Shown in pieces: positions 7,659 through 53,166 of a DNA stretch of 64,000 nt. This DNA comes from a virus. The stretch lies in IMG/VR virus record IMGVR_UViG_3300021180_000006, positions 22,799 to 86,798 of that record. One strand, given 5' to 3'. The notes under the pieces are model-generated. The model was not told the origin of the DNA and made no database searches. It worked only from the letters and a program-made list of their open reading frames with translations. The first letter of the stretch is position 1; each line of letters starts with the position of its first letter. Made by a program: the position numbers and the translations under genes.

Positions 7659-8054
7659 ATGGGCCGGCGCCGCACGCCACACCGTTTCGATCCCGATCTG
7701 TTCAACCGATCCGGTGAACGACTTCCCCGTCCGCTCGATCTGGAGGGCGCGTTCATCTGCCCGCTTCCCAAGAACCCGGCGGAGCAGAAGCAAATCCCGG
7801 CGGTAAAGGCGATCAGGCTGGAGGACAAGCTCTGGGTGGTCGAGAGCGCCGCCTGGCGCAAGGATGGCAGCGTGAAGGCGATCCTGCGAAAGCTCCAGGA
7901 GAGGGGGAGATCAGGGGAGGGGGCGAAAGGGAGAGAAGACGAACCTTGGACCGGGTGCCGGGTGAAGGTCGGGAAGAAGGTGATGGTGATCGGGCCGGTG
8001 GGGGAGAGCAGAAGTGTGGTGTTTTCAAATGCAAAGGAGTCCATCCATGAGTGA
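7659..8054 (+). CDS. Hypothetical protein
   Basis: ORF within the operon; contains a G/A-rich in-frame tract. Confidence 0.55.
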   Translation: MGRRRTPHRFDPDLFNRSGERLPRPLDLEGAFICPLPKNPAEQKQIPAVKAIRLEDKLWVVESAAWRKDGSVKAILRKLQERGRSGEGAKGREDEPWTGCRVKVGKKVMVIGPVGESRSVVFSNAKESIHE

Positions 8055-25568: not shown

Positions 25569-25574
25569 GATGTT

Positions 25575-25660
25575 TGGTCATTTGTCACTGGTCACTGGTC
25601 ATTGGTCACTTGCCCGAGCCGCGCGGCAAAACAAATGACCAGTGGCAAATGACCAGTGAC
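25575..25660. repeat. Inverted heptamer array (GGTCACT/GGTCATT vs AATGACC/AGTGAC)
   Basis: Tandem 7-mers on both arms form a hairpin. Confidence 0.85.
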
Positions 25661-25670
25661 GCCGGGCGCT

Positions 25671-27596
25671 TCACGCCCGGAAGCTGTACGGATCGTTCCA
25701 GTTGGTTCGGTATTCGACGTAGACGCGCGTGATGACCCCTTCGTGCTCGCCCGCCTCGCGCTCGAACCACGACGGCGGCGCCGGCAGCGTATTGGCCGCC
25801 AGACCGCCGCGGTGGGGATCGAGCTGGAGCGCCTTCTCGATGTCGGCGCGGACGATCAGGACCAGTTGATCGGCGGGGATGGGCGGTGAACCGCTCGGTC
25901 CTGGCTCGGGCTGGGCGCAGGTGGCGATGATCTCGAATTCCTGAATCCAGCATTGGATGTTGTTGCACTGGAGTTCGCGGTTCCACTGCGCTCCGCCGAG
26001 TTGCACGTCGGCGACGACGGTGATGCCGTCCGTCCCCACTTCACCCAAGCGATCGGGCTCGGTCGAATAGCAGTTGCACTGGTAGCCTTGCTCGACCGAG
26101 ATGTCTCCGACGACCTGGAGGATGTTCTGGCGGATGCGCTCGATCAGGGGGAGATTGCCGCCCAGGAGTGTGGCGCCGGCGGTGACGATGCTGAACGAGT
26201 GCTGATGGAAGAACGAGCCGGTGGCGAATACGTCGTTGGCCTGGACCGTGAAGGTGCTGCTGCCGGCGGTGGTGGGCGTGCCGGAAATCGTCCCCGTCGA
26301 AGCATTCAGAGTGAGGCCGGCCGGAAGGCTCCCGGATGCGATGCTGAAATTCTGGCTGGTTCCCTGCGTCTTGGCGATCTGGAGGGCCTGAGAATAAACC
26401 TGGCCCACGACCGCACTGGCGACTGAGGCGGTGGTGATGTTGATCAGGTCAAACTCGACGACGCGGTATTTGAAACTTTCGTAACCATAGAGGACGTTGT
26501 TGACGGGATCGAAGGCGTGACCCGGCTCCAGTCCGGTGAAGGCGCTTTGCGAAGTTCCCGCATTGCTGCTGACCCAATCGGCGGCGTTGAGGTTCTGGCT
26601 GGCGTTGGCGCCGTTGAAACTGGAGGTCGCGCTGTTGGGAACGATAAACTCGACGATGCGGACGTTACTGGAGTCGCAAGCCCAGAGCCGGTTCGCCGTC
26701 GAATCGTAATTCAGATCGTCGGGACCGTTCAATCCGTTCTGCGTATAGGTGCTGCCGGCGTAGTGGGTGAAGTCGGCTTGCCCGAGCACGAAGGTCGCGT
26801 TCTCACCGTTGATGCCGCTGCCTGATCCGGGGGGCGCGCTAAAGCACAAGATACGGTTGTTGGCCGAATCGGAGACGAACACGCGGGCATTGACCGGATC
26901 GTATGCGATCCCAAAGGGGCTGGTCATCCCCGCTTGTCCGTTGCCTGCGACCTTGGCGGTGAAACTCGATTGACCCAGGACGAACGAGGCGGCCGGGTTG
27001 CTGGCGCTGGAATCGTAGACGCCGTTGGCGACCGGGAAGCACATGACCCGGTTGTTGCCCGAGTCGCTCACAAACAATCTTCCGTTGACCGCGTCATAAT
27101 CGATGTCGTCCGGTCCGGCCAGTCCGGTTTGGGTTGTGGCCGATCCGTTGTGAGTAAAGTCGGTCTGCCCGATGACAAAAACCGCTGCGGCAAAATCGGT
27201 CAGATTCCCCGGCCGGCAATCGAAACAGAGGACGCGACGGAGGCCGCTATCGCTGAGGAACAAGCGGGCGTTGGCGTTGTCATAGCAGAGATTGCAAAAA
27301 CGAAAAGTCTGTGACGTGGTCGCCCCGCTGCCGACGACGTTGAAATTGGCGGCGCCCAGCACGTGAATGGGAAGGATGGGCATCGTTCCCGGCACGCGAT
27401 TGTTGTTGTCCAGTTGGAAAACCAGGACGCGGTTGTTTACGTCGTCCGCCACAAACAGGCGGTGCTGAACGGTATCGAGCGCGATGCTGGTGGTCTGATT
27501 GACTCCCTGCGAAGTGGTACTGCCGCTGGGCGAGTTCACGACGTTGGCCGTGAAGCTGGTCTGACCCAGGACGATGGAACAGTTCAGGATGGCCAT
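25671..27596 (-). CDS. NHL beta-propeller + Ig domain + tail terminator-like fusion
   Basis: Repeats RLFV.D..NNRV and VLGQ.DF; SGSLPAGLTLNASTGTISGTP; C-terminal DIEKAL..D..RGGLA..VEYRT..DPY. Confidence 0.75.
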   Translation of the reverse strand: MAILNCSIVLGQTSFTANVVNSPSGSTTSQGVNQTTSIALDTVQHRLFVADDVNNRVLVFQLDNNNRVPGTMPILPIHVLGAANFNVVGSGATTSQTFRFCNLCYDNANARLFLSDSGLRRVLCFDCRPGNLTDFAAAVFVIGQTDFTHNGSATTQTGLAGPDDIDYDAVNGRLFVSDSGNNRVMCFPVANGVYDSSASNPAASFVLGQSSFTAKVAGNGQAGMTSPFGIAYDPVNARVFVSDSANNRILCFSAPPGSGSGINGENATFVLGQADFTHYAGSTYTQNGLNGPDDLNYDSTANRLWACDSSNVRIVEFIVPNSATSSFNGANASQNLNAADWVSSNAGTSQSAFTGLEPGHAFDPVNNVLYGYESFKYRVVEFDLINITTASVASAVVGQVYSQALQIAKTQGTSQNFSIASGSLPAGLTLNASTGTISGTPTTAGSSTFTVQANDVFATGSFFHQHSFSIVTAGATLLGGNLPLIERIRQNILQVVGDISVEQGYQCNCYSTEPDRLGEVGTDGITVVADVQLGGAQWNRELQCNNIQCWIQEFEIIATCAQPEPGPSGSPPIPADQLVLIVRADIEKALQLDPHRGGLAANTLPAPPSWFEREAGEHEGVITRVYVEYRTNWNDPYSFRA

Positions 27597-27600
27597 GGTT

Positions 27601-27710
27601 CGAGGAGGAGGGGGTGAGGGGGGAGGAGGAGGGGGTGAGGGGGAGAAGGGGCGAGGGGGTGAAGGACAGAAGCTCTCCCCCTCGCCCCCTCACCCACTCT
27701 CCCCCTCTCT
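27601..27710. repeat. G/A-rich and C/T-rich inverted octamer-like array
   Basis: ggggtgag/gggggagg tracts followed by their complements. Confidence 0.75.
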
Positions 27711-28637
27711 TCACGAATTTTGCCCGCTCCAGGCGTTGGCGGCGTTGAAGTCGGGGCTGATCCCGTTGGTGAAGACGATCTGCGTATCGCTGACCGTCTT
27801 GAATCGTCCGTTGCGCAGGCTGGTCGAGGTGATGGTGAAGCTCTCCCCGCTCTGGCTCAGATCGAGCAGTCCGCCGTTGCGCAGGTTCAGTTGCGTGATG
27901 CAGGCCGCGCCGGCGTTGCGGTGCAGGCAGTGGATGGTGCCGCCGTCACAGGTTGCCGTGGGGACGAGGTAGGTGCCGCGGGTGAACAGGTCTCCAGCGA
28001 AACAGATCAGGGCCGTGACCGGGGTCGAGTTGACCAGAACCTGGCCGCCGTCGTTGACCACGTTGCTGTAGGTGACGCCCGAGCCCAGATTGCAGACGCC
28101 GCCGGTGACGTTGACGTTTCCGACCGTGGTGGTGTCGGTGTAGTTGTCGGTGGCGATGCCGATGCCGCCTGATCCGCCCAGGACGTTGATATCGCAGGCG
28201 GCGTTGTTGGCGCGGATGCGGACGGTTTCCTTGCCGGTGTCGATGGCGCGGGGATTGGCCTGGAAGACGTTGACGATCGGCGACGTCGTCCCCAGATCGA
28301 GGTTGATGCGCTGGCAGCCGACTTGGGTAGAGCTACTGGCGGCGGCGGCGGGGAGGTTGATGCCGACTTGGTTGCCGTTGGTGACGTTGAGCTTGAGGGG
28401 CGTGCCGTTGCTTCCGAACAGGATGGTCCCCGGTGAGGAGGAGCCGAAGGTGCCGTAGATGGTCAAGGTGTTGAAGACGACCCCGCCACCGGTTTGATCG
28501 GAGCCGTTGATGGCGCTGACGGCGGTGGCATCGAAGATCAGATCGTCACCGTTGCCGGGCACGCCGGAGGGGGACCAGTTGCCCGAGGTGGCGAAGTTGA
28601 AATCGCCGATGGTGCCGGACCATGTTTTCTTAGCCAT
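27711..28637 (-). CDS. Putative virion beta-helix protein
   Basis: W.G....F...GNWSPSGVP..GDDL.F start; G/N/T-rich. Confidence 0.6.
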   Translation of the reverse strand: MAKKTWSGTIGDFNFATSGNWSPSGVPGNGDDLIFDATAVSAINGSDQTGGGVVFNTLTIYGTFGSSSPGTILFGSNGTPLKLNVTNGNQVGINLPAAAASSSTQVGCQRINLDLGTTSPIVNVFQANPRAIDTGKETVRIRANNAACDINVLGGSGGIGIATDNYTDTTTVGNVNVTGGVCNLGSGVTYSNVVNDGGQVLVNSTPVTALICFAGDLFTRGTYLVPTATCDGGTIHCLHRNAGAACITQLNLRNGGLLDLSQSGESFTITSTSLRNGRFKTVSDTQIVFTNGISPDFNAANAWSGQNS

Positions 28638-28708
28638 GATGGTTCAGGGGGGTGAGGGAGAGGGAGAGGGTGAGGCAGAGCAGCGGCCCCGATAGCGCCC
28701 GGATCGCT

Positions 28709-28927
28709 TCAACGGTCGTTTGCTGATGGCGCTGAAATCAGGGCAAATCGTTCGCTGAACAGGGTTTGCCCGTCGCCCCGGTACAGATGAACCGCGACCG
28801 GCTTTCCCGTCTCCCTGTCCACTTCGAGGCCGTTGAGGACGCGGTTTCCGGCGTAGCTCAGGATGCGATCATCGAATCGCCAGATGGGCGTGGGCAATCT
28901 GTCGGCAGGGATTTTTTTGTTTGACAC
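28709..28927 (-). CDS. Hypothetical protein (possible portal-like fragment)
   Basis: NGLEVD..GKPVAVHL resembles lambda-type portal motifs. Confidence 0.35.
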   Translation of the reverse strand: MSNKKIPADRLPTPIWRFDDRILSYAGNRVLNGLEVDRETGKPVAVHLYRGDGQTLFSERFALISAPSANDR

Positions 28928-29045
28928 GGGCCGGGAGTTGTTAGAGTCGCGGGCGTTGATCGCTGGTTTCTAATCGCACAAGTACGATTCTCACGCCGCT
29001 CCCGCGAGACGCCTTTCCGGCGATCAACACTCGCGCCGGGGCGGC
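28921..29045 (+). promoter_or_regulatory. Promoter plus conserved structured leader, homologous to 52144-52247
   Basis: TTGACA..TGtTAGAGT; 28955-28966 pairs with 29017-29028 inside the stem 28995-29008/29030-29045. Confidence 0.75.
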
Positions 29046-29067
29046 ATGCGCTTCGGAACTTCGGAAG

Positions 29068-30096
29068 ATGAAGAAGAAATGCTGCGTTTGCGGTGATTTT
29101 TTCACGGCATCGAAATTCACGCCGAACGTTCAAATTCTCTGCGCATCTCCGGAATGCAAATCCAAACATAAGCGGAAGCTTGCCGGCTCGGAGTCGAGGG
29201 GGAGCAAAAAGGCATGCGTGATATGCGGGCTGCAATTCAGTTGTTGGACCCGTCTTCAACTGGCATGCTCTTCAAAAAAATGCCAACGAAGTCTACAGGA
29301 TTCTCGCCGAAGAAGCAGAACAGGGCTCATATTAGCGAACAGTAAATGCTCGATTTGCGGTCGGGACTTCAAGACGGCGTCCAAAAATCGCGTGACCTGC
29401 GGCGCCCTGCGGTGCCGGCGTCAATCCGCAATCCGAAGAAGCCGCCTTCTTTCCGGTTGGATTGCCAAAGAACGGCGCTGCGAATCTTGCGGACGCAGTT
29501 TCCATCCTCGCCACCGCGCACATATTTGCTGTAGCAAAGTCTGCATGAATAAATGCCAAGCCCTTCGCGGTTATCTCTCCCGCGGGTGGCATCCGATGAT
29601 GATGCGGTGTCCGTTTTGCGCTAAAGAATTTATGCCGGACACCCGTCGCCGAGTGACGTGCGGCGCACTCGAATGCAAATCTGCTCTTTCACGCCAGAGG
29701 GCAGGCGTTGAGAAACGAGGGAAAAAAGGAATCTGTCGTTTTTGTGGAAAGGATTTTCTCGCTAGAAATCGTCGGCAGATAACATGCGGTAATACCCCCT
29801 GCCGGCGCAAACTTGACGCCAAGGCGCAGCTTTTCAATTGTTCGATCTGTGGAAGGGCGTTCTGGACATCGCGACATGACCGCATTACATGCGGCGACCC
29901 GAAATGTCAGAAAGAACACTGCCTAGCCCGGCATCGAAATAGAGACCCAATCATCCGGATGAAATTGACGCCGCAGGACTTGGAACGCCGGCGTCAAAAA
30001 GCGTATGACAAATATCACGCGAAACATGATAGAGCGAAGATGGACGAACTCCGACGAATGAAACTCATTTTGAAAGGAGCACTGACCAATGCCTGA
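29068..30096 (+). CDS. Multi-zinc-finger protein (7 CxxC..F..CxxxxC repeats)
   Basis: Seven visible Cys repeats; very basic; lower GC. Confidence 0.75.
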   Translation: MKKKCCVCGDFFTASKFTPNVQILCASPECKSKHKRKLAGSESRGSKKACVICGLQFSCWTRLQLACSSKKCQRSLQDSRRRSRTGLILANSKCSICGRDFKTASKNRVTCGALRCRRQSAIRRSRLLSGWIAKERRCESCGRSFHPRHRAHICCSKVCMNKCQALRGYLSRGWHPMMMRCPFCAKEFMPDTRRRVTCGALECKSALSRQRAGVEKRGKKGICRFCGKDFLARNRRQITCGNTPCRRKLDAKAQLFNCSICGRAFWTSRHDRITCGDPKCQKEHCLARHRNRDPIIRMKLTPQDLERRRQKAYDKYHAKHDRAKMDELRRMKLILKGALTNA

Positions 30097-30715
30097 GACA
30101 AAACTGACGACGCGATCGGCTGGACTTCCGAGCTTGGATGATTTCCTCACCAAGTTCGACCGAATGACAAACGAGCAGATCGCCGGTCGAATCACCGAGC
30201 TGCTCGGCATCGACCGCAATGTCGTTCTCGAAATCGCGGCCGGCATCAAAACGATCGAGCTACGCGACCCTAACTCCGAGGAACTTCAACGAGTGAAGGA
30301 GATGACGGGCCTCTTTGAATACTGCCGCCGCGTTGCATTCGACAATCTGTATCCGGACATCATCGTCCGCTTTCATGGTGAGATGCTCCGCTACGTCGCC
30401 GCGCTCACTCGACCAGATCAGGAAAAGGTCTGCGCCAGCGAACGGATGCTCTACGTCGTCATCGAGAACGGCGAGACCAAGAAGACATGGGTTCCCACGA
30501 TGAAGATGCGGACCCGCCACATCCGCCAGATTTTCAATGATCGCAAGATCAACGACGAAGGCGATCAAATCGCCTACGCCCGCGCGAAAATCCCCAACAC
30601 CGGCAAGACAACCAAACCCTACGAAATCCTCAAAGGCGGGACGATCTGCCGGGTTGCAGCCCAAACGGACTGGAACAAATCCGATCTACTGATGATTCTC
30701 GGGCGGATGAAATAG
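30089..30715 (+). CDS. Hypothetical protein
   Basis: AAGGAG SD; coupled to the previous gene. Confidence 0.75.
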   Translation: MPETKLTTRSAGLPSLDDFLTKFDRMTNEQIAGRITELLGIDRNVVLEIAAGIKTIELRDPNSEELQRVKEMTGLFEYCRRVAFDNLYPDIIVRFHGEMLRYVAALTRPDQEKVCASERMLYVVIENGETKKTWVPTMKMRTRHIRQIFNDRKINDEGDQIAYARAKIPNTGKTTKPYEILKGGTICRVAAQTDWNKSDLLMILGRMK

Positions 30716-31051
30716 AAGCACGTCTTCGACCGCCATTTCGGCGTCCCTGTGAAGCAGCGAAAAGTGCTGCCGGAGGAATTCGTTTATTTCCTGAACGGCG
30801 AGCATCATCTTCAATGCCTGAAACGCCAACCGCGCAATCACCCACGCTTGCCTTTCGTCATTGGCACTTCGTGGCGCGGCTGGCAAAAATGCGCCAGCGC
30901 AAGCCGCAGTTTTCACCCTCTCAAAAAGCCAAGAGAATGCACGCCGTTCGCAGAATTGTTGTATCTCGCTTTCGGCTGCGATTCGGCATCCCACGTTGAA
31001 TGGTTGTTCGCAAACCCTTCGACGGTCATGGTCATTCGGGTGATACATCAT
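30686..31051 (-). CDS. Hypothetical protein
   Basis: ATGA-coupled to the HTH gene. Confidence 0.45.
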   Translation of the reverse strand: MMYHPNDHDRRRVCEQPFNVGCRIAAESEIQQFCERRAFSWLFERVKTAACAGAFLPAAPRSANDERQAWVIARLAFQALKMMLAVQEINEFLRQHFSLLHRDAEMAVEDVLLFHPPENHQ

Positions 31052-31245
31052 TTTCCAGATCGCTTGCCCTTCGGCCCGCGCGGGAGCCTCTTGAACTTGG
31101 CAAGCGACGAAGGATAGATCAGCCAGTCCCGCCCCACCTTCTGGGCCTTCAATCGCTTCTCGTCGATGAACTGGCGGACGCGATGCACCCCCACGCCCAA
31201 GAGCTTCCCCGCCTCCGCCGTCGTCAATGAGGGTTTTTCGCCCAT
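31048..31245 (-). CDS. Excisionase/MerR-like HTH protein
   Basis: LTTAEAGKLLGV...VRQFI...RLKAQKVGRDWLI. Confidence 0.85.
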   Translation of the reverse strand: MGEKPSLTTAEAGKLLGVGVHRVRQFIDEKRLKAQKVGRDWLIYPSSLAKFKRLPRGPKGKRSGK

Positions 31246-31257
31246 CGAGGCCCATTC

Positions 31258-31323
31258 TGACCCATGGGTGAGGAAATTGCCAGCCGTTTATAGTCGAAAG
31301 TATCCTTACCCGTGAGTAAGATA
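31258..31323. promoter_or_regulatory. Candidate operators between divergent genes
   Basis: Imperfect palindromes tgacccatgggtga (31258) and ttacccgtgagtaa (31306). Confidence 0.5.
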
Positions 31324-31353
31324 CGGGCGTAAGCGAACAAAAGGAGCTTTCAA

Positions 31354-31539
31354 ATGACTGAAACCAATCGAATCACTGAACTGGATAACGCCCGCAAGCA
31401 AGCCGACGAAGCCAAAAGCCGCGTGGAAAACGCCCGCTACAGCCAGAGCCGCCGCGATGCCTGGGCGGATTACGAATTCTGGACGAGCAAGACCGCGTTC
31501 CTCACCGCGATCGGCGTTCAGGGACAGACGCGAGCGTGA
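31354..31539 (+). CDS. Small hypothetical protein
   Basis: AAGGAG SD; divergent from the HTH gene. Confidence 0.65.
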   Translation: MTETNRITELDNARKQADEAKSRVENARYSQSRRDAWADYEFWTSKTAFLTAIGVQGQTRA

Positions 31540-36159: not shown

Positions 36160-36689
36160 TGCTTCTCCGGCCAGCGCATCCACGGATGAAGATAAGTCAC
36201 GATCCCCTCTTTCACCATCTCGTCGATCGCCTTGTGGCAGCCGGCGCAGTAACGGTAGTCATCCACCAGCGCCATGGCGCCCGGGAGCATGCGCTTGGCC
36301 AGCCATTCACAGACGAAGCGGTAGGAGGAATACCAGTCGCAATCGAGATACACGAACGCGAACTTCACCTCAGGGTCGAACTCCGGCAGCGTCTTCTGGA
36401 ACGTCCCTTTGACGCAGATGACGTTGTGATACTCGGCCAGGTGCTCGATCACATGATCGCTCCTGAACTGGCCCGGTGGATTGTCCTGATCCAGCCAGGG
36501 ATCATAAGGGGCGTCATACGGCATGCCCTCGAAGGTGTCGAAGGCGTAGACCGTCCGTCCATAGCCAGCGAGCTGCACCGTCGAGCCGCCTTCAAACACG
36601 CCGAATTCCGCGATCGGTCCCGGCGGCACCTTGGGGATCATCTGCGAGAAATCCGCTGAGTGGGAAATGATCGGCGCGGGGGTGTACAT
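36156..36689 (-). CDS. TylF/MycF-family sugar O-methyltransferase
   Basis: AEFGVFEGGS, FDTFEGMP, FAFVYLDCDWYSS, VDDY. Confidence 0.9.
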   Translation of the reverse strand: MYTPAPIISHSADFSQMIPKVPPGPIAEFGVFEGGSTVQLAGYGRTVYAFDTFEGMPYDAPYDPWLDQDNPPGQFRSDHVIEHLAEYHNVICVKGTFQKTLPEFDPEVKFAFVYLDCDWYSSYRFVCEWLAKRMLPGAMALVDDYRYCAGCHKAIDEMVKEGIVTYLHPWMRWPEKQ

Positions 36690-36694
36690 GGAGG

Positions 36695-36800
36695 AAAGAG
36701 AGAGGGGGAGTGGGTGAGGGGGAGAGGGGGGTGACGGGGGAAAGCCTAGCTTTGCTTTTCTCCCACTCGCCCACTCGCCCCCTCTCCCCCTCCTCCCGCC
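36695..36800. repeat. G/A-rich and C/T-rich inverted octamer-like array
   Basis: Read directly; overlaps the 3' end of a GT gene. Confidence 0.7.
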
Positions 36801-37483
36801 TCCGGCCGCAACGGCTCAAACCCCTCGGGCAGCGCGACATCCGGCGGCGGGGGCAATTCCCGCTCGACTTTCCTGCCCAGGTTCTCCCACTGCCGCTGGA
36901 AGTGATAGGCGTAGGAGCCGATCCGCGCGAAGCGGCAGCCCTCGTTGAAGACCTTCACCTTGAAATCGGCGTCGTTGTCGTGCGGGAACGGGATCTTGTC
37001 GGGCAGCCCGCCCTTCTCGAGAAACCAGCTTTTGCGGAAGGCCGAGGGGCTGTACCAGCCGAAAATGTCCAGCTCGATCGAGGACCGGCCGGCGTTGTCG
37101 ACGGCGCAGAAGTGCTCGAAGCCGGGGCGATCGAAACTCGTGGCGGTGCGGCCGAAGTTGGCCCCGATGTTCGAGCCCGCCACCCCGATGGCGCCGCACT
37201 CGACCAGTCGCAGACAGAGCCAGTCGGCATCGTTGATGTGCCGGCGGATATTCTCGTCCCAGCCGGGGGCATAGACGATATCGGAGTTGTCCCAGAGGAG
37301 AATGTCGTACTTAGCGCGTTTGGCCAGCCAGTTCCATGCCGGATAAACATCATCGGGCGTGGTGCCCACGACGTAGAGCAACTGGTAGGGACAGCAGGTA
37401 TTGTCCGCCAGCATCTGGCGTTTGAGTTCCAGGCAGGCGTTGTTCTCCGGGCTGTCGTGATGGGGGAAGATCAGGGAGATCAT
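36746..37483 (-). CDS. GT2-like glycosyltransferase
   Basis: AWN...AKYD.LL.DNSD; D.DF; YHFQ. Confidence 0.8.
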   Translation of the reverse strand: MISLIFPHHDSPENNACLELKRQMLADNTCCPYQLLYVVGTTPDDVYPAWNWLAKRAKYDILLWDNSDIVYAPGWDENIRRHINDADWLCLRLVECGAIGVAGSNIGANFGRTATSFDRPGFEHFCAVDNAGRSSIELDIFGWYSPSAFRKSWFLEKGGLPDKIPFPHDNDADFKVKVFNEGCRFARIGSYAYHFQRQWENLGRKVERELPPPPDVALPEGFEPLRPEAGGGGEGASGRVGEKQS

Positions 37484-45637: not shown

Positions 45638-46323
45638 GCCGCCAGCGGTTCACACCCCGGAAATCCTCCCGCCTTCCGCGCCAGAAACAGGGCCTGATCG
45701 TGTCCCCACCGCGCCGTCGCCTTGTGCATGTAAAGCGGCTGGGGCTGTCCCGTGCGCGAATAGTGCTCGTGCCGGATGGTCAGGTCCGGGCGCTGCCAGA
45801 GGAGAGGAGAAACGGGAGAGGGGGAGAGGGGGTGAGGGGGCGAGGGGGTGAGGGTGACATCGTGCAATTCCTCATCCGCGAAGTAATGGTTGTATCCCGG
45901 CCAGAACGCTCCAGCGCCGCGGTTGAATCTCAGGATGAACCCGCGGCTCAGCAGGGGCGAACCGCAGATGCGCTCAGAACCCGATTCGCCGGTGCACTGC
46001 ATCACACCTAAAGCCCCGTGGCCAAAATGGGCGGTACACTCATGGGCAATCCGGCAGGCGGGCAGGTCCGGGGGATACATATCGTCGCCGGCACAGCAGA
46101 TCCACTGGAGGTCGAATTCCTCCTCCAAGAGGAAGCGGCACAGGGCGTTGGTCGCTTTGGGATAACCTTCGTAGGCACCCCAGAGGACGTATTCGGCGCC
46201 GACCCGCTCCATGCCTTCATCGCGGAAGACAGCGCACTTCCAGCCCTTGTCCCGCCAGGCACAGAGGACGGGATCGCAGTCCGAGGCGGACTTGGCGCTG
46301 GGGAAAGCGACGAAGGGGGACAC
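45634..46323 (-). CDS. GT2-like glycosyltransferase
   Basis: AGDDMYP, Y.HYFAD.E, HEHY. Confidence 0.75.
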   Translation of the reverse strand: MSPFVAFPSAKSASDCDPVLCAWRDKGWKCAVFRDEGMERVGAEYVLWGAYEGYPKATNALCRFLLEEEFDLQWICCAGDDMYPPDLPACRIAHECTAHFGHGALGVMQCTGESGSERICGSPLLSRGFILRFNRGAGAFWPGYNHYFADEELHDVTLTPSPPHPLSPSPVSPLLWQRPDLTIRHEHYSRTGQPQPLYMHKATARWGHDQALFLARKAGGFPGCEPLAA

Positions 46324-48044: not shown

Positions 48045-48076
48045 GATAAATCTCGGGAGGAGGGGAGGAGGGAGAG

Positions 48077-48155
48077 TCACTTGTCACTTGTCACTGGTCA
48101 CTTGTTGGGCGCGCGCCCTCTGGCAAGTGACCAATGACAAATGACCCATGACCAA
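48077..48155. repeat. Inverted heptamer array
   Basis: GTCACTT repeats vs AATGAC repeats around a GGGCGCGCG core. Confidence 0.85.
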
Positions 48156-48518: not shown

Positions 48519-48560
48519 GACTGTTTCTCGCTTTTTGTGTTTGAGGGAAAGAGGAGGGGA

Positions 48561-48633
48561 GTCACTGGTCACTTGTCATTGGTCACTTGGAATGACCGCT
48601 GACCAATGACAAATGACAAGTGACAAATGACCG
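48561..48633. repeat. Inverted heptamer array
   Basis: Hairpin directly 3' of the capsid gene. Confidence 0.85.
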
Positions 48634-48635
48634 CT

Positions 48636-50429
48636 TTAATGCCCGGCGTTCTTGTAGACGCCGCGGAAGTCGATGGCCTTTCCGGCAACCGTATGGCGCA
48701 CCAGGTATTTCACGTCCTCGGTGTCGAAGTCGGTCTCCTGGCGGATGACGGGCTCGGGCTCGTCGGTCAGGAAGCTGAGTTCGATGGTGTTGACCTGTCC
48801 GTCGCGGAAATCGGCCACCAGGAACCAGGCTTGCGTGTCGGCATCGTCCAGACGGACGCTCCCGACCACCTGGTAGCGGTTGTTGTAGGGGTTGAAATCG
48901 CCCACCGTCTGCGGCACCGCAGCCGACGACGACTGGCTGGCGATCAGGGTCCGGGAACCGATCAGTTCCTTGGTCTGCTCCTCGATCGAGGAGGGGACCA
49001 GGAGGAACTTGGGCTCCAATTCAAGGCGGGCCGCACCGGCCAGACCTTTCTGCTTCTTCATCGCCGTCGAGCCGATTTGAAGCTGGAGCACGCTGGGCAC
49101 GCCGCCCGAACCGGCGGTGGTGAGGTTGCTGTGGGCGGCGGAGAAGATGGCGTTGCCGTCGGCCATGTTGGCGTTGCCGGTGATGACGGCGTAGGCCACG
49201 TCGTCTTCCTTACGGGCGGCGGAATTGGCCTGCGCCCTGGGAATTGCGCTAAAAGCATCCAAGTCGTCGTTAATGATGGCGTTGCGCGTTAAACGGACAC
49301 CAGCTTTGTACGTGACCAGCACGTAGGTCTCTTTCGAGTCCTGGAGCTGGACGTACTGCATTTCGCCGGCTTCGTTGGCCGCGACCATGTTCGGGGCTTC
49401 CGACAGGACAACCCGATTGATGTTCTTGAAGTCCGGGTTGAAGCGCTTCTCCGCCCAGGCGGGCCAGGTCCGCTTGGCGTCCAGATAGTTGAAGCGCAAA
49501 CTTTTGTTGATCGCGTCGAGCGTGATGTTGCCGAAATCCGGGGTGGATTCCGCCAACGCCGCCATGCGCGGGAAGGCTTGCCGCATGCGGCGCGGGCCCA
49601 GGCAATCGGCCAGGCGGGTCTTGGAGTAGCCGTAGACCTCGGTGAATCCAAGGGACGCCAGGTAATGCCGGAACATGTCGAGCATGGACAGCTCGCGCAG
49701 TTCCTTGGCCCGATCGAGGATCTTGCCCTCGTATTTGATGATCTGCTCGGCCGCCAGTCCGGCGCGGAGCACGATGGCCTGCGGCATGGCGGCGCGCAGG
49801 CTGGCGAGGTTCTTGTCCTCGCCCACCTTCACGCTCAGGAGCGGCTTGGCCGACTCGTGCACGTAGCGCAGGATGGCCATCCGGGCCTGCTCGAAGGTGC
49901 CGTTTTCCGCGATCACCGTATTGGCATAGGCATCGGGAACGGCGTGCAGGGCGGCCAGTTTGCGGATGCGGGCCACTCTTTTTGCCTCGAAATCCAATGC
50001 CGCGTTGTCGTTGTCGGCATCGTCCAGCTTGGCGGCGACACCGCCGGCCGCCGGCGCTTGCATGCGCTGGCCCTGGGGGAGTTTGGCGCCGGTGGCGGCG
50101 CCCAGTGCGGCGATCGCGGCCTCGGTGGCCAGCTTGATGATCTGCTCCTGGCTCATGCCGGTGGCGGGGACGGCCACGCCCTGGCCGGGCAATGCGCCAG
50201 CGGCGCCGGAATCGCCGGAGTTGCCGGCGACGGAGGGCTGGCCGGGAACGGGCGGGCCGGCGTGCAGGCCGGTATCGCCGCCGTCGCCGTCCATCATGCG
50301 CGCGAGCTTGGCGTCGATGTCGGCGCGTTTGTCGGCCGACAGGCCGTCGTAATAGGACTTGGCGTCATCATCTGAGGCATCGGCGTCGCAGCCGTTCGCC
50401 ACGAGAAGTGACTTGAGATGGGGGTGCAT
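48636..50429 (-). CDS. Major capsid protein with an N-terminal scaffold-like region
   Basis: ST.DF..I, DFK, TR.AIINDDLDAF, P.FLLVP, IDFRG.YKN; AAGGAG SD before the ATG at 50429. Confidence 0.92.
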   Translation of the reverse strand: MHPHLKSLLVANGCDADASDDDAKSYYDGLSADKRADIDAKLARMMDGDGGDTGLHAGPPVPGQPSVAGNSGDSGAAGALPGQGVAVPATGMSQEQIIKLATEAAIAALGAATGAKLPQGQRMQAPAAGGVAAKLDDADNDNAALDFEAKRVARIRKLAALHAVPDAYANTVIAENGTFEQARMAILRYVHESAKPLLSVKVGEDKNLASLRAAMPQAIVLRAGLAAEQIIKYEGKILDRAKELRELSMLDMFRHYLASLGFTEVYGYSKTRLADCLGPRRMRQAFPRMAALAESTPDFGNITLDAINKSLRFNYLDAKRTWPAWAEKRFNPDFKNINRVVLSEAPNMVAANEAGEMQYVQLQDSKETYVLVTYKAGVRLTRNAIINDDLDAFSAIPRAQANSAARKEDDVAYAVITGNANMADGNAIFSAAHSNLTTAGSGGVPSVLQLQIGSTAMKKQKGLAGAARLELEPKFLLVPSSIEEQTKELIGSRTLIASQSSSAAVPQTVGDFNPYNNRYQVVGSVRLDDADTQAWFLVADFRDGQVNTIELSFLTDEPEPVIRQETDFDTEDVKYLVRHTVAGKAIDFRGVYKNAGH

Positions 50430-50439
50430 ATGCACTCCT

Positions 50440-50890
50440 TCAAAAATGGAGAGGGAGAACGAACTGCGACCCGGCAACGCGCCGAGTCCATGCACCGCCG
50501 TTTTCAAGAGCTGGTGGGGGAGGTCACTCGTCATTGGTCACTGGTCATTTGTTTAGGGTTCCCATCCGCGATCAATCGCGGATGGGAGGCCCTTGGGCGC
50601 GCGGCCCTGGCAAGTGACCAGTGACAAGTGACAAATGACCAGGGGGTTAAAGCGTCGACCGGAGTTTCCTCCGATCGAGCGCTGAAAACGGCGGACGACT
50701 AACGCGCCCAAGCGTCCACCGTTCGTTTCACAAGGGAGCCAATTTAATTTACAGGAGGGATGGTCCCGGCCGGCTTCCACGGGCTCGTTATCACCGGCAG
50801 AATCGTTTCGATTCCGGCTGCACTGCTGGCCATTTAAGGCCCGACTTGCGTTGCATTTACGGGCTTTCACCGTCAGAACCACCATGTCCT
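50440..50890 (-). ncRNA. Candidate structured RNA / leader of the capsid gene
   Basis: Dense hairpins, several with GAAA-type loops; heptamer inverted array at 50522-50641; no credible ORF. Confidence 0.5.
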
Positions 50891-50891
50891 G

Positions 50892-52124
50892 TTATTTCCG
50901 CGGCGTGCTCTGCGCCTGCACGGGATCACCGGGCGAGGGCCAGATGCCGTTGGCGGCCATGGCGGTTTTACCCTTGGGCGTGGCCTCATACCCGGTCGAT
51001 CTTCCGCCGTGGGCCATCACCCGTTTGGCATAGCCGTTGTCCGCCAGCCATTCACAGCCCGCCCGCATCGCTTCCAAGCGTCCGTTGAATCGCGAGGCCA
51101 GAGAGCCCATGGTCTGCATGCCGTGCTTGACGATGTGGCCCAGATAAGCCCCGCGGGTGTCGTGAGGAAAGACGGGCGCCTCAGGCGGCGCTGCGGGCCG
51201 GGGCGGTCGGCCGGCGTCGGAGCTTGGAGGATCAGGGGTGCCGGCGGGGATGGGGGCCTTGGCTTTGTCGGCGGGCTTGGGCTCCTGCCAGCCGGAGGAG
51301 TTGGGTGCGCCCGAGGGCGGCTGAGGGTCGTAGAGGACGGCTGAGGCACTGAGCAGGCCGCGGGGGTTACTCGCTGGTTTGCCCACGAAATCCAGAGCCT
51401 CAAGCCCAACGGGGCGGGCGGGATTAGAAAGTATTGCGCCCCAATTGTCTAAGATCGGTTCGACGGTGTACGGGAAAAAAGCGCTAAGCCCAATTCCGGC
51501 CGCGTCCTCGTTGGCGAAATTCAGCAGGTAGCCGCGCACGTCGCCCATGCCCGGTACTGCACTCGCGTAATCGCCCAAAAACACGTCCCCTCTCCCCTGC
51601 GCCACCGGTTTGCCATCCTGCATCACCGTCGCGATCCTGCCATTCTTGATCCGTCCCACCATGGTCCCGGTGTCGTCCGCCACTTCCTGAATCACGTTGC
51701 CTTCGGGGTCGGTGGAGGTCTTGACGTTGGGATGGCGGAACCGGCACTTGATCCCATCGGCGGAAGCGTTGACCAGGGCGACGATTTGCTCGACGGTGGT
51801 TTTGTCGATGTCGAAGGGCTTGCCCAGGGCGATGCCTTCGGTGATGAGCGCGACGTTCTTGATGATCCCGTTGTCGAAATCGACGGAGACGCCGGAATCG
51901 GAATACGCAGTCGGAGCGCGGAGAGCGGCGAAGGGGCCTTTGAGCGCGGCGGCATTGGCGGCGGCCGCTGCGGGCTTGGCCTTTTTCTTGTTGTGCTTGC
52001 GGAACATCGAATACGCGATAGCCGCGGCCTGGGCCTGGTCCTTGGCGGTGCCATCTTTCAAGAGGATAGGGATTGCCCGAGCCACGAAGGATTTCTCAGA
52101 CTCTCCGGGATTTACGTCTGGCAC
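50892..52124 (-). CDS. Putative prohead protease / head maturation protein
   Basis: Directly upstream of the capsid gene; KCRFRHP, GLS and DFV..PA.N motifs. Confidence 0.7.
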   Translation of the reverse strand: MPDVNPGESEKSFVARAIPILLKDGTAKDQAQAAAIAYSMFRKHNKKKAKPAAAAANAAALKGPFAALRAPTAYSDSGVSVDFDNGIIKNVALITEGIALGKPFDIDKTTVEQIVALVNASADGIKCRFRHPNVKTSTDPEGNVIQEVADDTGTMVGRIKNGRIATVMQDGKPVAQGRGDVFLGDYASAVPGMGDVRGYLLNFANEDAAGIGLSAFFPYTVEPILDNWGAILSNPARPVGLEALDFVGKPASNPRGLLSASAVLYDPQPPSGAPNSSGWQEPKPADKAKAPIPAGTPDPPSSDAGRPPRPAAPPEAPVFPHDTRGAYLGHIVKHGMQTMGSLASRFNGRLEAMRAGCEWLADNGYAKRVMAHGGRSTGYEATPKGKTAMAANGIWPSPGDPVQAQSTPRK

Positions 52125-52143: not shown

Positions 52144-52247
52144 AGTTGTTAGAATGGCGGCGTCAGTCGCCAGGTTCACGATCCACAATTCACGCCGTCC
52201 CTCGCCGCGAGAAGTCTTTCTGGCGATTGACCTCGCGCGGGGGCGGC
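52144..52247 (+). promoter_or_regulatory. Extended -10 promoter plus conserved structured leader, homologous to 28936-29045
   Basis: TGtTAGAAT; 52162-52173 pairs with 52220-52231 inside the cgcgag/ctcgcg stem. Confidence 0.75.
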
Positions 52248-52273
52248 GCTGCGCCGGACAGGAAGAAAACAAA

Positions 52274-53166
52274 TTGAAGCCCCTCATCAAACTTGGCGAT
52301 CATTTCGGGCGCTTGACCGTCGCGGAATCTCTCGGCTCCAAGCTCATGAACGGCAAACGGCGCAGTCTGTGGCGTTGCACTTGCGAATGCGGTGGAGAAG
52401 CGACGACCATCACGGCATCTCTGAGAAACGGAACAACGCGGAGTTGCGGATGCCTGCGTGGTTCAGCCCATTTCAAACGGGCGACGAATCAAAATGACGA
52501 GGTGCTTCCGACGAAGGATTTGCGCGGCAAGGTCTTCGGGCGACTTCGGGTCATGAAGTTCGATGGCTATCGAAGATTTAAAGGGGGCCAAAATAGACCA
52601 AACGGCGCTTCGCGCGGAATGTGGCTCTGTCAATGCGAATGTGGAAACACCACGATTGTCGAAACGTCGTCGCTGACCACGGGGAACGCTAAAAGCTGCG
52701 GATGCCTCCAGCGCCATCGGGCTTCGGAAGCCAAAACGGGGACGATTCCCAAATCCCGCCTGCGTCTCGGCGAATCGGAAATGCGAAGAACCTTCCGAAA
52801 CTGCCGTCGCACCGCCTTAAAGAAGGGCTTTGCATTCGAGTTGGACGTAGAAACGTTTCACCGGATCACACGGTCGAATTGTCATTACTGTGGCGCGGAA
52901 CCCGCTGGCTTTAGTAAAACCGGAAGGGCTTTCGGACCTTACGTCCACAACGGCATCGATCGCGTGAACAATAATCTCGGCTATCTCATGTCCAATTGCG
53001 TCCGGCCAAACGTCACATGGATGTCTCCACTTTTCTACGCTGGGCGCGGGCCGTCACGATGAACATGGACCGTAAGCGGCACGAATGCCCCGGCCAACTT
53101 AGTCTATTCGAGCCTGTTGCGCAGTCGGTTCAGACCAGCAGCGCCGTCAATTCCTCGTCATCCTGA
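52274..53166 (+). pseudogene. HNH homing endonuclease-like gene with a frameshifting deletion near 53003
   Basis: Two FGRL.V..W.C.C.CG..SCGC repeats; CHYCG; NGIDRVNN..GY...NCV, then AKRHM...FLRW continues in another frame. Confidence 0.75.

Follow-up and report, generated by a model that had tools for sequence, protein, structure and literature searches.

A candidate family of promoter-proximal structured RNAs carried by unrelated prophage elements of a soil bacterial family

Structured RNAs that are located close to a promoter have been described in a number of phages and prophages, and the closest analogues of the element analyzed here, which are functional analogues and not homologues, are IsrK, HK022 putL and putR, the T4 endonuclease hairpins, and the P4 CI RNA. 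IsrK of the Gifsy-1 prophage is a short RNA that ends at a terminator, which some transcripts pass to read into the downstream genes; alternative structures decide translation, and the same sequence serves as a small RNA and as the 5' portion of an mRNA (PMC4825925). The P4 CI RNA of the seqA-seqB-seqC immunity system is reported to act via complementarity to sequences on its own transcript (PMC4825925). Phage HK022 harbors putL and putR, two homologous structured RNAs of ~70 nt that each follow a promoter, form stem-loops and are cis-acting (PMC9378689). In phage T4, regulatory hairpins were found upstream of the homing-endonuclease genes I-TevI, segB, and mobE (PMC2988022).

The stretch of DNA analyzed here (64,000 nt, referred to as the window) contains two homologous leaders, termed copies A and B. 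Phages of uncultured soil bacteria have scarcely been explored for structured RNAs, and in Rfam 15 no match was obtained for the 64-kb window at the gathering score. At E values of up to 5, none of the matches overlapped the leaders in the two loci that contain them (L001 and L009), and the listed hits were all at positions 147 to 314 of L001, which correspond to a different hairpin. For a third copy described below, E values of up to 1 gave a single match, which was to RF01681 on the opposite strand and fell below the threshold (20.3 bits versus the required 37). The initial annotation of this DNA had named a match to a described Rfam family with a known role as a point against its reading; no family matches, and by these Rfam searches the RNA element is undescribed.

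Two homologous leaders in one prophage

Most of the window is a prophage with its late genes on the minus strand, such as a capsid-protease fusion (48636-50534) and a protease/scaffold-like gene (50892-52124). Both leaders head plus-strand units (29068-30715 and 52274-53166) that are antisense to these late genes. That the two leaders align had been noted before, and the pairwise alignment of copy A (28936-29048) with copy B (52144-52250) bore this out, with 77 of the 103 ungapped columns identical. The differences amount to 26 substitutions, 17 of them transitions, and 14 gap columns (indels of 8, 4, 1, and 1 nt), and the "mean column identity" given by the alignment tool was 83%. Because of these indels there is no shared reading frame; a common leader peptide was considered and rejected, as the indel lengths are not divisible by three and the two copies have no ORF in common.

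The similarity extends further than the initial annotation had placed it, from a weakly similar -35 region (about 28905 in copy A and 52112 in copy B) to the ribosome-binding region (29067 and 52273, respectively). It begins weakly ~40 nt 5' of the common block AGTTGTTAGA and stops at the GGAAG ribosome-binding region before the start codons, and the downstream coding sequences are unrelated (best BLASTP E value, 0.88). Since the similarity spans the promoter-like region to GGAAG, the duplicated unit consists of the promoter-like region and the complete 5' leader. The promoter-like sequences are as follows:

28921-28947, plus strand: promoter-like sequence of copy A, composed of TTGACA (28921-28926), a 15-nt spacer, and TGT-TAGAGT (extended -10-like, 28939-28947)
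52147-52155, plus strand: extended -10-like TGT-TAGAAT of copy B, as read from the sequence

Copies A and B do not differ in the -10-like block AGTTGTTAGA. The upstream TTGA block of copy B lies 8 nt closer than that of copy A, and copy B lacks a -35 element. With a consensus promoter scanner, a sigma-70 site was called at neither of the window copies; that of copy A was missed because its spacer measures 15 nt. The sequence AGTTGTTAGART is not a repeated phage promoter motif, as there were only two exact sites and five further sites with 2 mismatches.

Downstream of the ribosome-binding regions, the ORFs start within 22 to 26 nt of the window copies:

29068-30096, plus strand: cargo gene A1, encoding a 342-aa protein with seven zinc-ribbon-like repeats
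30089-30715, plus strand: cargo gene A2, encoding a 208-aa protein and overlapping the stop of A1
52274-53166, plus strand: cargo gene B, an HNH homing-endonuclease-family gene whose 262-aa frame ends at 53062

Residues 79 to 215 of A1 match phrog_1271 ("HNH endonuclease"; E value, 4.8e-9), and no relatives of A1 were detected in the viral contigs or the protein collection. A2 had no family match, and its look-alikes in the Atlas are hypothetical phage or bacterial proteins. Gene B matches phrog_374 (E value, 1.8e-33), and 76 distant relatives of it were retrieved from viral contigs; its protein contains no Pfam domain at an E value of 0.01 and matches only PHROG homing-endonuclease families. 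Padloc and NCBIfam returned nothing for the cargo proteins. The frame of gene B breaks after ...SNCV (52990-53166), and the PCCxxCN block present in its relatives at loci L013, L014, and L018 is missing, while a C-terminal tail of weak homology (E value of only 0.1) can be followed in a different frame up to 53166. Gene B thus appears to have lost its C-terminal Cys/Asn motif by frameshift or deletion and is probably an inactivated, decaying homing endonuclease gene, although the frame break may be an assembly error.

The cassettes are plus-strand units among minus-strand genes, have PHROG HNH matches, and show a low GC3 (0.54 for A1, 0.72 for A2, and 0.60 for B, compared to about 0.8 for most neighboring late genes). 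These features point to moron-like or free-standing homing-endonuclease-like inserts, antisense in the late region. In three related prophages, with capsids 42 to 45% identical over the aligned part (tblastn; 45 to 49% in another comparison), no cassette was found between the portal-like and protease-capsid genes: the two genes directly abut in L121 and L124 and are separated by small ORFs in L123, and these prophages are too diverged for insertion boundaries.

Parts of the prophage were also detected in environmental libraries. Three soil runs, two of them metatranscriptomic, contain 8 to 19% of the sampled words from 28600-31300, and contigs of soil runs match scattered parts of the prophage at 100% identity. 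Segment 30064-30813, which comprises A2 and its 3' flank, is represented by contigs of 99.7 to 100% identity in two soil metatranscriptome runs from different studies. None of the listed RNA-library contig pieces covers the leader, and as contigs of this kind show neither starts nor strand and may include DNA carry-over, they provide no evidence either way.

Several other features of the window were observed. In long intergenic palindromes at 27601-27715, 36688-36808, and 45790-45862, G-rich units of 8 nt (GGGGGTGA/GGGGGAGA...) precede their C-rich complements; for the first palindrome, many Rfam hits of the miRNA-precursor type were obtained below the threshold on both strands (L001 190-277, corresponding to 27625-27712 of the window). 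Intergenic inverted arrays of 7-nt units (GTCACTT/GTCACTG, then CAAGTGAC/CAATGAC...) occur at 25572-25676, 48071-48154, 48556-48633, and 50518-50641, between late genes and including both flanks of the capsid gene, and soil RNA-library contigs from other organisms share the array unit at 25571-25610. Just past cassette A (31048-31539) there is a divergent pair formed by an HTH_17/excisionase-like gene (31048-31245, minus strand) and a 61-aa ORF (31354-31539, plus strand), to the latter of which a promoter-like site at 31277-31306 belongs; this pair is possibly a regulatory switch inside the structural region.

Pairing within the window copies

The leaders contain two arms that are complementary over 12 bp and a GC-rich hairpin at the 3' end:

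28955-28966, plus strand: 5' arm of copy A, GTTGATCGCTGG, beginning 7 nt past the -10-like hexamer
29017-29028, plus strand: 3' arm of copy A, CCGGCGATCAAC, partner of 28955-28966
52162-52173, plus strand: 5' arm of copy B, GTCAGTCGCCAG, beginning 6 nt past the -10-like hexamer
52220-52231, plus strand: 3' arm of copy B, CTGGCGATTGAC, partner of 52162-52173
28995-29045, plus strand: GC-rich 3' hairpin of copy A, with an outer stem formed by 28995-29002 and 29038-29045 and an apical part that contains the 3' arm
29003-29008 with 29030-29035, plus strand: further pairing of the copy A hairpin, CGCGAG with CTCGCG
52194-52247, plus strand: GC-rich 3' hairpin of copy B, from folding

RNAalifold and pair counting recovered the helix at alignment columns 20 to 31 with 86 to 97. 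Between copies A and B it has undergone three double and two wobble changes, and pairing is kept throughout, including an extension to 16 pairs (32 of 32 cells paired). The five pair changes claimed initially are exactly those found, namely, U-A to C-G, G-C to A-U twice, A-U to G-U, and U-G to C-G. When the 3' partner was slid by 1 to 3 columns, pairing fell to 32 to 56%. The built-in shuffle of two sequences has only eight states and is powerless (66 of 500), and we therefore used our own simulation, in which 26 substitutions of the observed kinds were placed randomly on copy A: a helix of at least 8 bp was kept in both sequences together with at least 3 double changes in 25 of 20,000 trials.

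The second structure, a GCCGC...CGCGAG ... CTCGCG...GGGCGGC hairpin, was chosen by RNAalifold on a trimmed alignment and by single-sequence folding. The long-range helix and the 3-bp inner stem of the hairpin share bases, and the inner stem competes with the helix because the 3' arm of the latter sits in the apical part of the hairpin. In the predicted folds, the helix could coexist with the outer hairpin stems only as a pseudoknot. The fold z-scores were -1.58 and -2.50 on the plus strand and -0.71 and -1.65 on the minus strand.

No U-run follows the hairpins of the window copies, and no terminator-like site was called there. In the minimum-free-energy folds, the ribosome-binding region of copy B (GGAAG) is unpaired with a high unpaired probability, whereas that of copy A takes part only in a weak 5-bp local hairpin; sequestration of the ribosome-binding site is thus not evident in the predicted folds of either copy. 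By eye, a CUUUC loop could pair with GGAAG of the ribosome-binding region, and the C/U-G/A difference that separates copies A and B agrees with such a pairing, which is absent in the third copy.

A third copy in an unrelated integrated element

A covariance model of copies A and B with the hairpin structure (R1) was used to search 141 genomes of the same family and matched contig C144 of genome G134 at 40.2 bits, via the 3' hairpin only. This genome is from another genus of the family that includes the host of the window prophage. The locus (L125/L134) contains, in this order, TTGACA, 18 nt, TATCTT, seven nt, a 12-nt arm, and the perfect complement of this arm inside the hairpin at the homologous place. 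In all three copies, the helix begins 6 to 7 nt past the -10-like hexamer, and from the spacing of sigma-70-type promoters we infer that transcription starts just before the helix.

The G134 copy sits at the edge of a different integrated element, which carries a tape-measure-like gene along with genes for an RHH protein and a small sigma-region-4 protein and which has no protein matches to the window prophage at an E value of 1e-4 save for one 46-residue hit. It is divergent from a minus-strand 240-aa ORF; a direct repeat and a hairpin are found on its 3' side, where a long ORF does not follow immediately. About 210 nt downstream, a 49-nt stretch shares 98% identity with the 3' portion of a tRNA-Pro(CGG) gene, the full version of which is located at G134:C71:151-226, and this stretch is a putative attachment-site duplicate. 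The ORF past it, for which zero family hits were obtained, is read as an integrase-like fragment, and beyond it are host NusG-like and WecG genes. Within positions 7930 to 8135 of L134 (G134:C144), we observed a tandem TTCAGACTTC repeat, a GCGGGG...CCCCGC hairpin, and the 49-nt tRNA-Pro(CGG) duplicate. A 40-codon ORF (L134 7881-8003), not conserved in the window copies, starts directly after the hairpin of the RNA, and the GGAGG of this ORF is located in the 3' strand of the hairpin and pairs with CCUCC.

Inclusion of the third copy (MAFFT alignment) extended the pairing pattern. For the 12-bp helix, 36 of 36 cells are paired and both bases have been replaced in 6 of 12 pairs, in one case by a transversion (G-C to C-G); the 12-nt arms of G134 are perfectly complementary and contribute 3 further double changes. 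None of 500 shuffles reached this covariation, and slid controls paired at 20 to 58%; these statistics are thin, as they are based on three sequences of which two are from one genome. Cognate arm duplexes have energies of -19.6 to -22.2 kcal/mol (-19.6 for copy A and -20.3 for copy B), compared to -9.0 to -13.9 kcal/mol for non-cognate combinations, so that the arms match within each copy and not between copies. For the hairpin, 48 of 48 cells are paired, both bases have been replaced in 2 pairs, and an insertion in G134 is itself paired; as most of the hairpin sequence is conserved, the shuffle control is weak (114 of 500 reached this count), and the alignment used for the count had been fitted to that structure. 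At column 89, G is replaced by A in G134, and this is compensated by C to U changes at columns 28 (helix) and 81 (inner stem of the hairpin), as would be expected if both pairings matter. Nested folding favors the hairpin state by 1.8 (A), 4.5 (B), and 6.5 (G134) kcal/mol, and the predicted states are thus close enough to alternate.

Taken together, the compensatory changes claimed initially are real, are unlikely to have arisen by chance as judged by the simulation, and are extended by an independent third copy; the one further homolog retrieved in the covariance-model search that the initial annotation had proposed does covary. They are best read as the result of selection on pairing in a plus-strand RNA. 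A different origin would be a DNA-level inverted repeat, such as an operator, the repeat of an invertible segment, or a single-stranded DNA hairpin, the arms of which are matched through recombination and not through selection on RNA. The arms do form an inverted repeat beside a promoter, and concerted evolution of recombination repeats can mimic covariation. However, the repeat of each window copy contains a G·T mismatch, and all six G·U cells over both structures fit the plus strand, with zero mismatched cells, whereas the same six cells are C·A mismatches on the minus strand; wobble cells confined to one strand are not favored by a duplex-DNA site. Furthermore, the arms are only 54 columns apart with the promoter-like sequence outside them, the separate 3' hairpin keeps its pairing down to the paired insertion in G134, and one phage would need two different binding specificities. 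We consider a DNA element very improbable.

Further searches yielded a total of three copies in two genomes. In the own genome of the window prophage (7 Mb, 548 contigs), R1 retrieved only copies A and B, which BLASTN on this genome did not link to each other. No match to R1 or R2, a second model, was obtained on 76 loci with relatives of the HNH gene or on the loci surrounding relatives of the capsid (28 viral and 9 genomic). R2 matched none of 150 other genomes of a class sample, and a strict invariant pattern matched none of 400 other genomes of a phylum sample. Three patterns gave no match in viral contigs, two exact-match patterns each gave none in metagenome and genome contigs, and BLASTN gave none in the cultured-phage collection. 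The strength of "not found" in these data is weak because the genome searches scored 26 to 37 pre-filtered candidates per genome (150 in the own genome) and the pattern scans require exact matches; of the pattern scans on viral, metagenome, and genome collections, five fitted both window copies and two fitted copy B only, as the second metagenome/genome pattern required TTCACGCCG and copy A has CTCACGCCG.

Several candidates were discarded. One weak R1 match among ~100 relatives (L010, 27 bits) was rejected, as the central 45 positions are missing and it lies inside a 274-aa ORF. R1 matches of 23 to 29 bits in three of the 141 family genomes (G126, G108, and G132) were not counted, since R2 gave a 12.2-bit partial match (L126) or nothing, and R2 matches of 29 to 31 bits in two family genomes (G179 and G152) were rejected, both being inside ORFs.

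The small number of copies, and their absence from the 150 class genomes, the 400 phylum genomes, the viral contigs, and the pattern-scanned contigs, would agree with a recent duplication of a promoter region that carries a chance inverted repeat and has no function. This explanation fits the data poorly and is highly improbable: every helix cell is paired although 26 of 103 columns differ, and the third copy, in an unrelated element of another genus, keeps both structures.

Possible roles and relation to described systems

The downstream genes are unrelated and the G134 element shares no proteins with the window prophage apart from the one 46-residue hit, so that the promoter and the RNA are the conserved unit; the sole constant partner of the RNA across the copies is its own promoter-like sequence. 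By the three sequences compared, the element is a real structured RNA and represents a new small family of prophage promoter-proximal RNAs in one soil bacterial family. Our main reading, to which we assign a probability of roughly one-half, is that of a portable unit of a sigma-70-type promoter-like sequence and a ~100-nt structured plus-strand RNA that would act both as a cis-acting leader and as a small RNA. This dual reading is the favored one and is modeled by analogy on IsrK of Gifsy-1 (PMC4825925).

According to this main reading, the presumed 5'-terminal nucleotides of the transcript would pair, through the 12-bp helix, with the apical region of the 3' hairpin, and the helix would cap the 5' end. 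Pairing of the first nucleotides protects bacterial RNAs from 5'-end-dependent decay. The helix and hairpin states would alternate, or both may form as a pseudoknot; in the modeled structures, the helix need not disrupt the outer hairpin stem, so that an antiterminator role is no more than possible. In G134, the hairpin is followed by GCTTTTG, as read by eye, and is terminator-like; termination at this hairpin and U-run would give rise to a short RNA, although some transcripts possibly read through. In both copies of the window, where the U-run is gone, the RNA would be a leader that runs into the ribosome-binding region and the cargo gene, and its fold may set the amount of transcript or translation that reaches the cargo.

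The terminator-like end of the G134 copy is also what might be expected of a free-standing, trans-acting prophage small RNA, either of the P4 CI / P1 C4 immunity type or corresponding to IsrK acting in trans. The window copies would then have been fused to genes secondarily, with the helix and hairpin stabilizing the RNA and the exposed loops pairing with targets. The repeats and the att-like tRNA-Pro fragment that come next in G134, together with the conservation of nothing but promoter and RNA, agree with this possibility, as does the action of P4 CI by complementarity to its own transcript (PMC4825925). In contrast, the window copies have no U-run and are followed by a ribosome-binding region and an ORF 22 to 26 nt on, the similarity between copies A and B takes in the ribosome-binding region, and no Rfam small RNA family was matched at the gathering score or, on the plus strand of the three copies, at E values of up to 5 or 1. 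A purely trans-acting RNA is therefore possible but doubtful.

An autonomous, horizontally moving promoter and RNA unit may alternatively correspond to a pseudoknotted or bistable riboswitch-like or factor-binding aptamer that would act as a sensor and gate the expression of accessory or selfish genes of the prophage, or to a prophage immunity or anti-defense RNA, which we regard as rather unlikely. If such a sensor or immunity function applied, the within-copy matching of the arms would give each copy its own specificity.

The initial annotation had linked the leaders to basic zinc-binding proteins, which might use the RNA as a ligand, as a guide, or as a site of autoregulation. The genes downstream of both window copies are indeed related to HNH endonuclease families with zinc-ribbon repeats, and T4 intron endonucleases do autoregulate, but at DNA operators (PMC2988022). 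The link was not supported: the two downstream proteins are unrelated, with the best BLASTP E value given above, the C-terminal metal/catalytic block of gene B seems to have been lost, and no HNH or zinc-ribbon gene is present among the scanned neighbors of the G134 copy. Guide RNAs of the HEARO / IscB omega RNA type are located upstream of a large RuvC+HNH protein, unlike protein B, which has 262 aa and no Pfam domain at the threshold used; an HNH-associated guide RNA is further at odds with the lack of an Rfam match and of an HNH gene among the scanned neighbors in G134. A protein partner of this kind is very unlikely.

The occurrence of the element in two unrelated prophages with different cargo is the signature of a functional, exchangeable regulatory part, and in this compact element compensatory changes support half of the main helix. 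If the RNA controls inserts that are antisense in a late operon, it would show how such inserts stay harmless to the phage. The RNA could also supply a small portable module for expression control, and R1 and R2 may serve as seed models.

Comparison with the described systems shows partial likeness in each case. Like IsrK, the element is prophage-borne and has its own promoter-like sequence, and the two faces of IsrK (PMC4825925) are mirrored here by the terminator-like G134 copy and by the window copies that run into genes; the differences are another host phylum, other cargo genes, and, here, no Rfam gathering match in the window. The P4 CI RNA (PMC4825925) is likewise a prophage leader with long-range complementarity within the transcript that is tied to premature termination, but neither processing signals, a second complementary site, nor downstream replication genes were identified here, and there was no Rfam hit.

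The T4 hairpins resemble the window copies in that a structured RNA is found just 5' of phage homing-endonuclease-family genes, and T4 segD is antisense between capsid genes 23 and 24 just as cassette B is antisense beside the capsid module (PMC2988022). However, the T4 hairpins sequester the ribosome-binding site and contain a late promoter, use of which frees this site (PMC2988022), whereas here the promoter-like hexamers lie 5' of the structure, the ribosome-binding site is predicted to be free in copy B and to be in a weak hairpin in copy A, and the RNA is also found without an endonuclease gene in G134. The resemblance to HK022 put consists in two homologous promoter-proximal structured RNAs in one phage, a comparison that covers only the general layout (PMC9378689). 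The put RNAs bind RNA polymerase and suppress termination over long early operons, whereas the RNAs described here head units of 1 to 2 genes, one copy ends in a terminator-like manner, and the fold differs in that the 5' end is paired into the hairpin loop.
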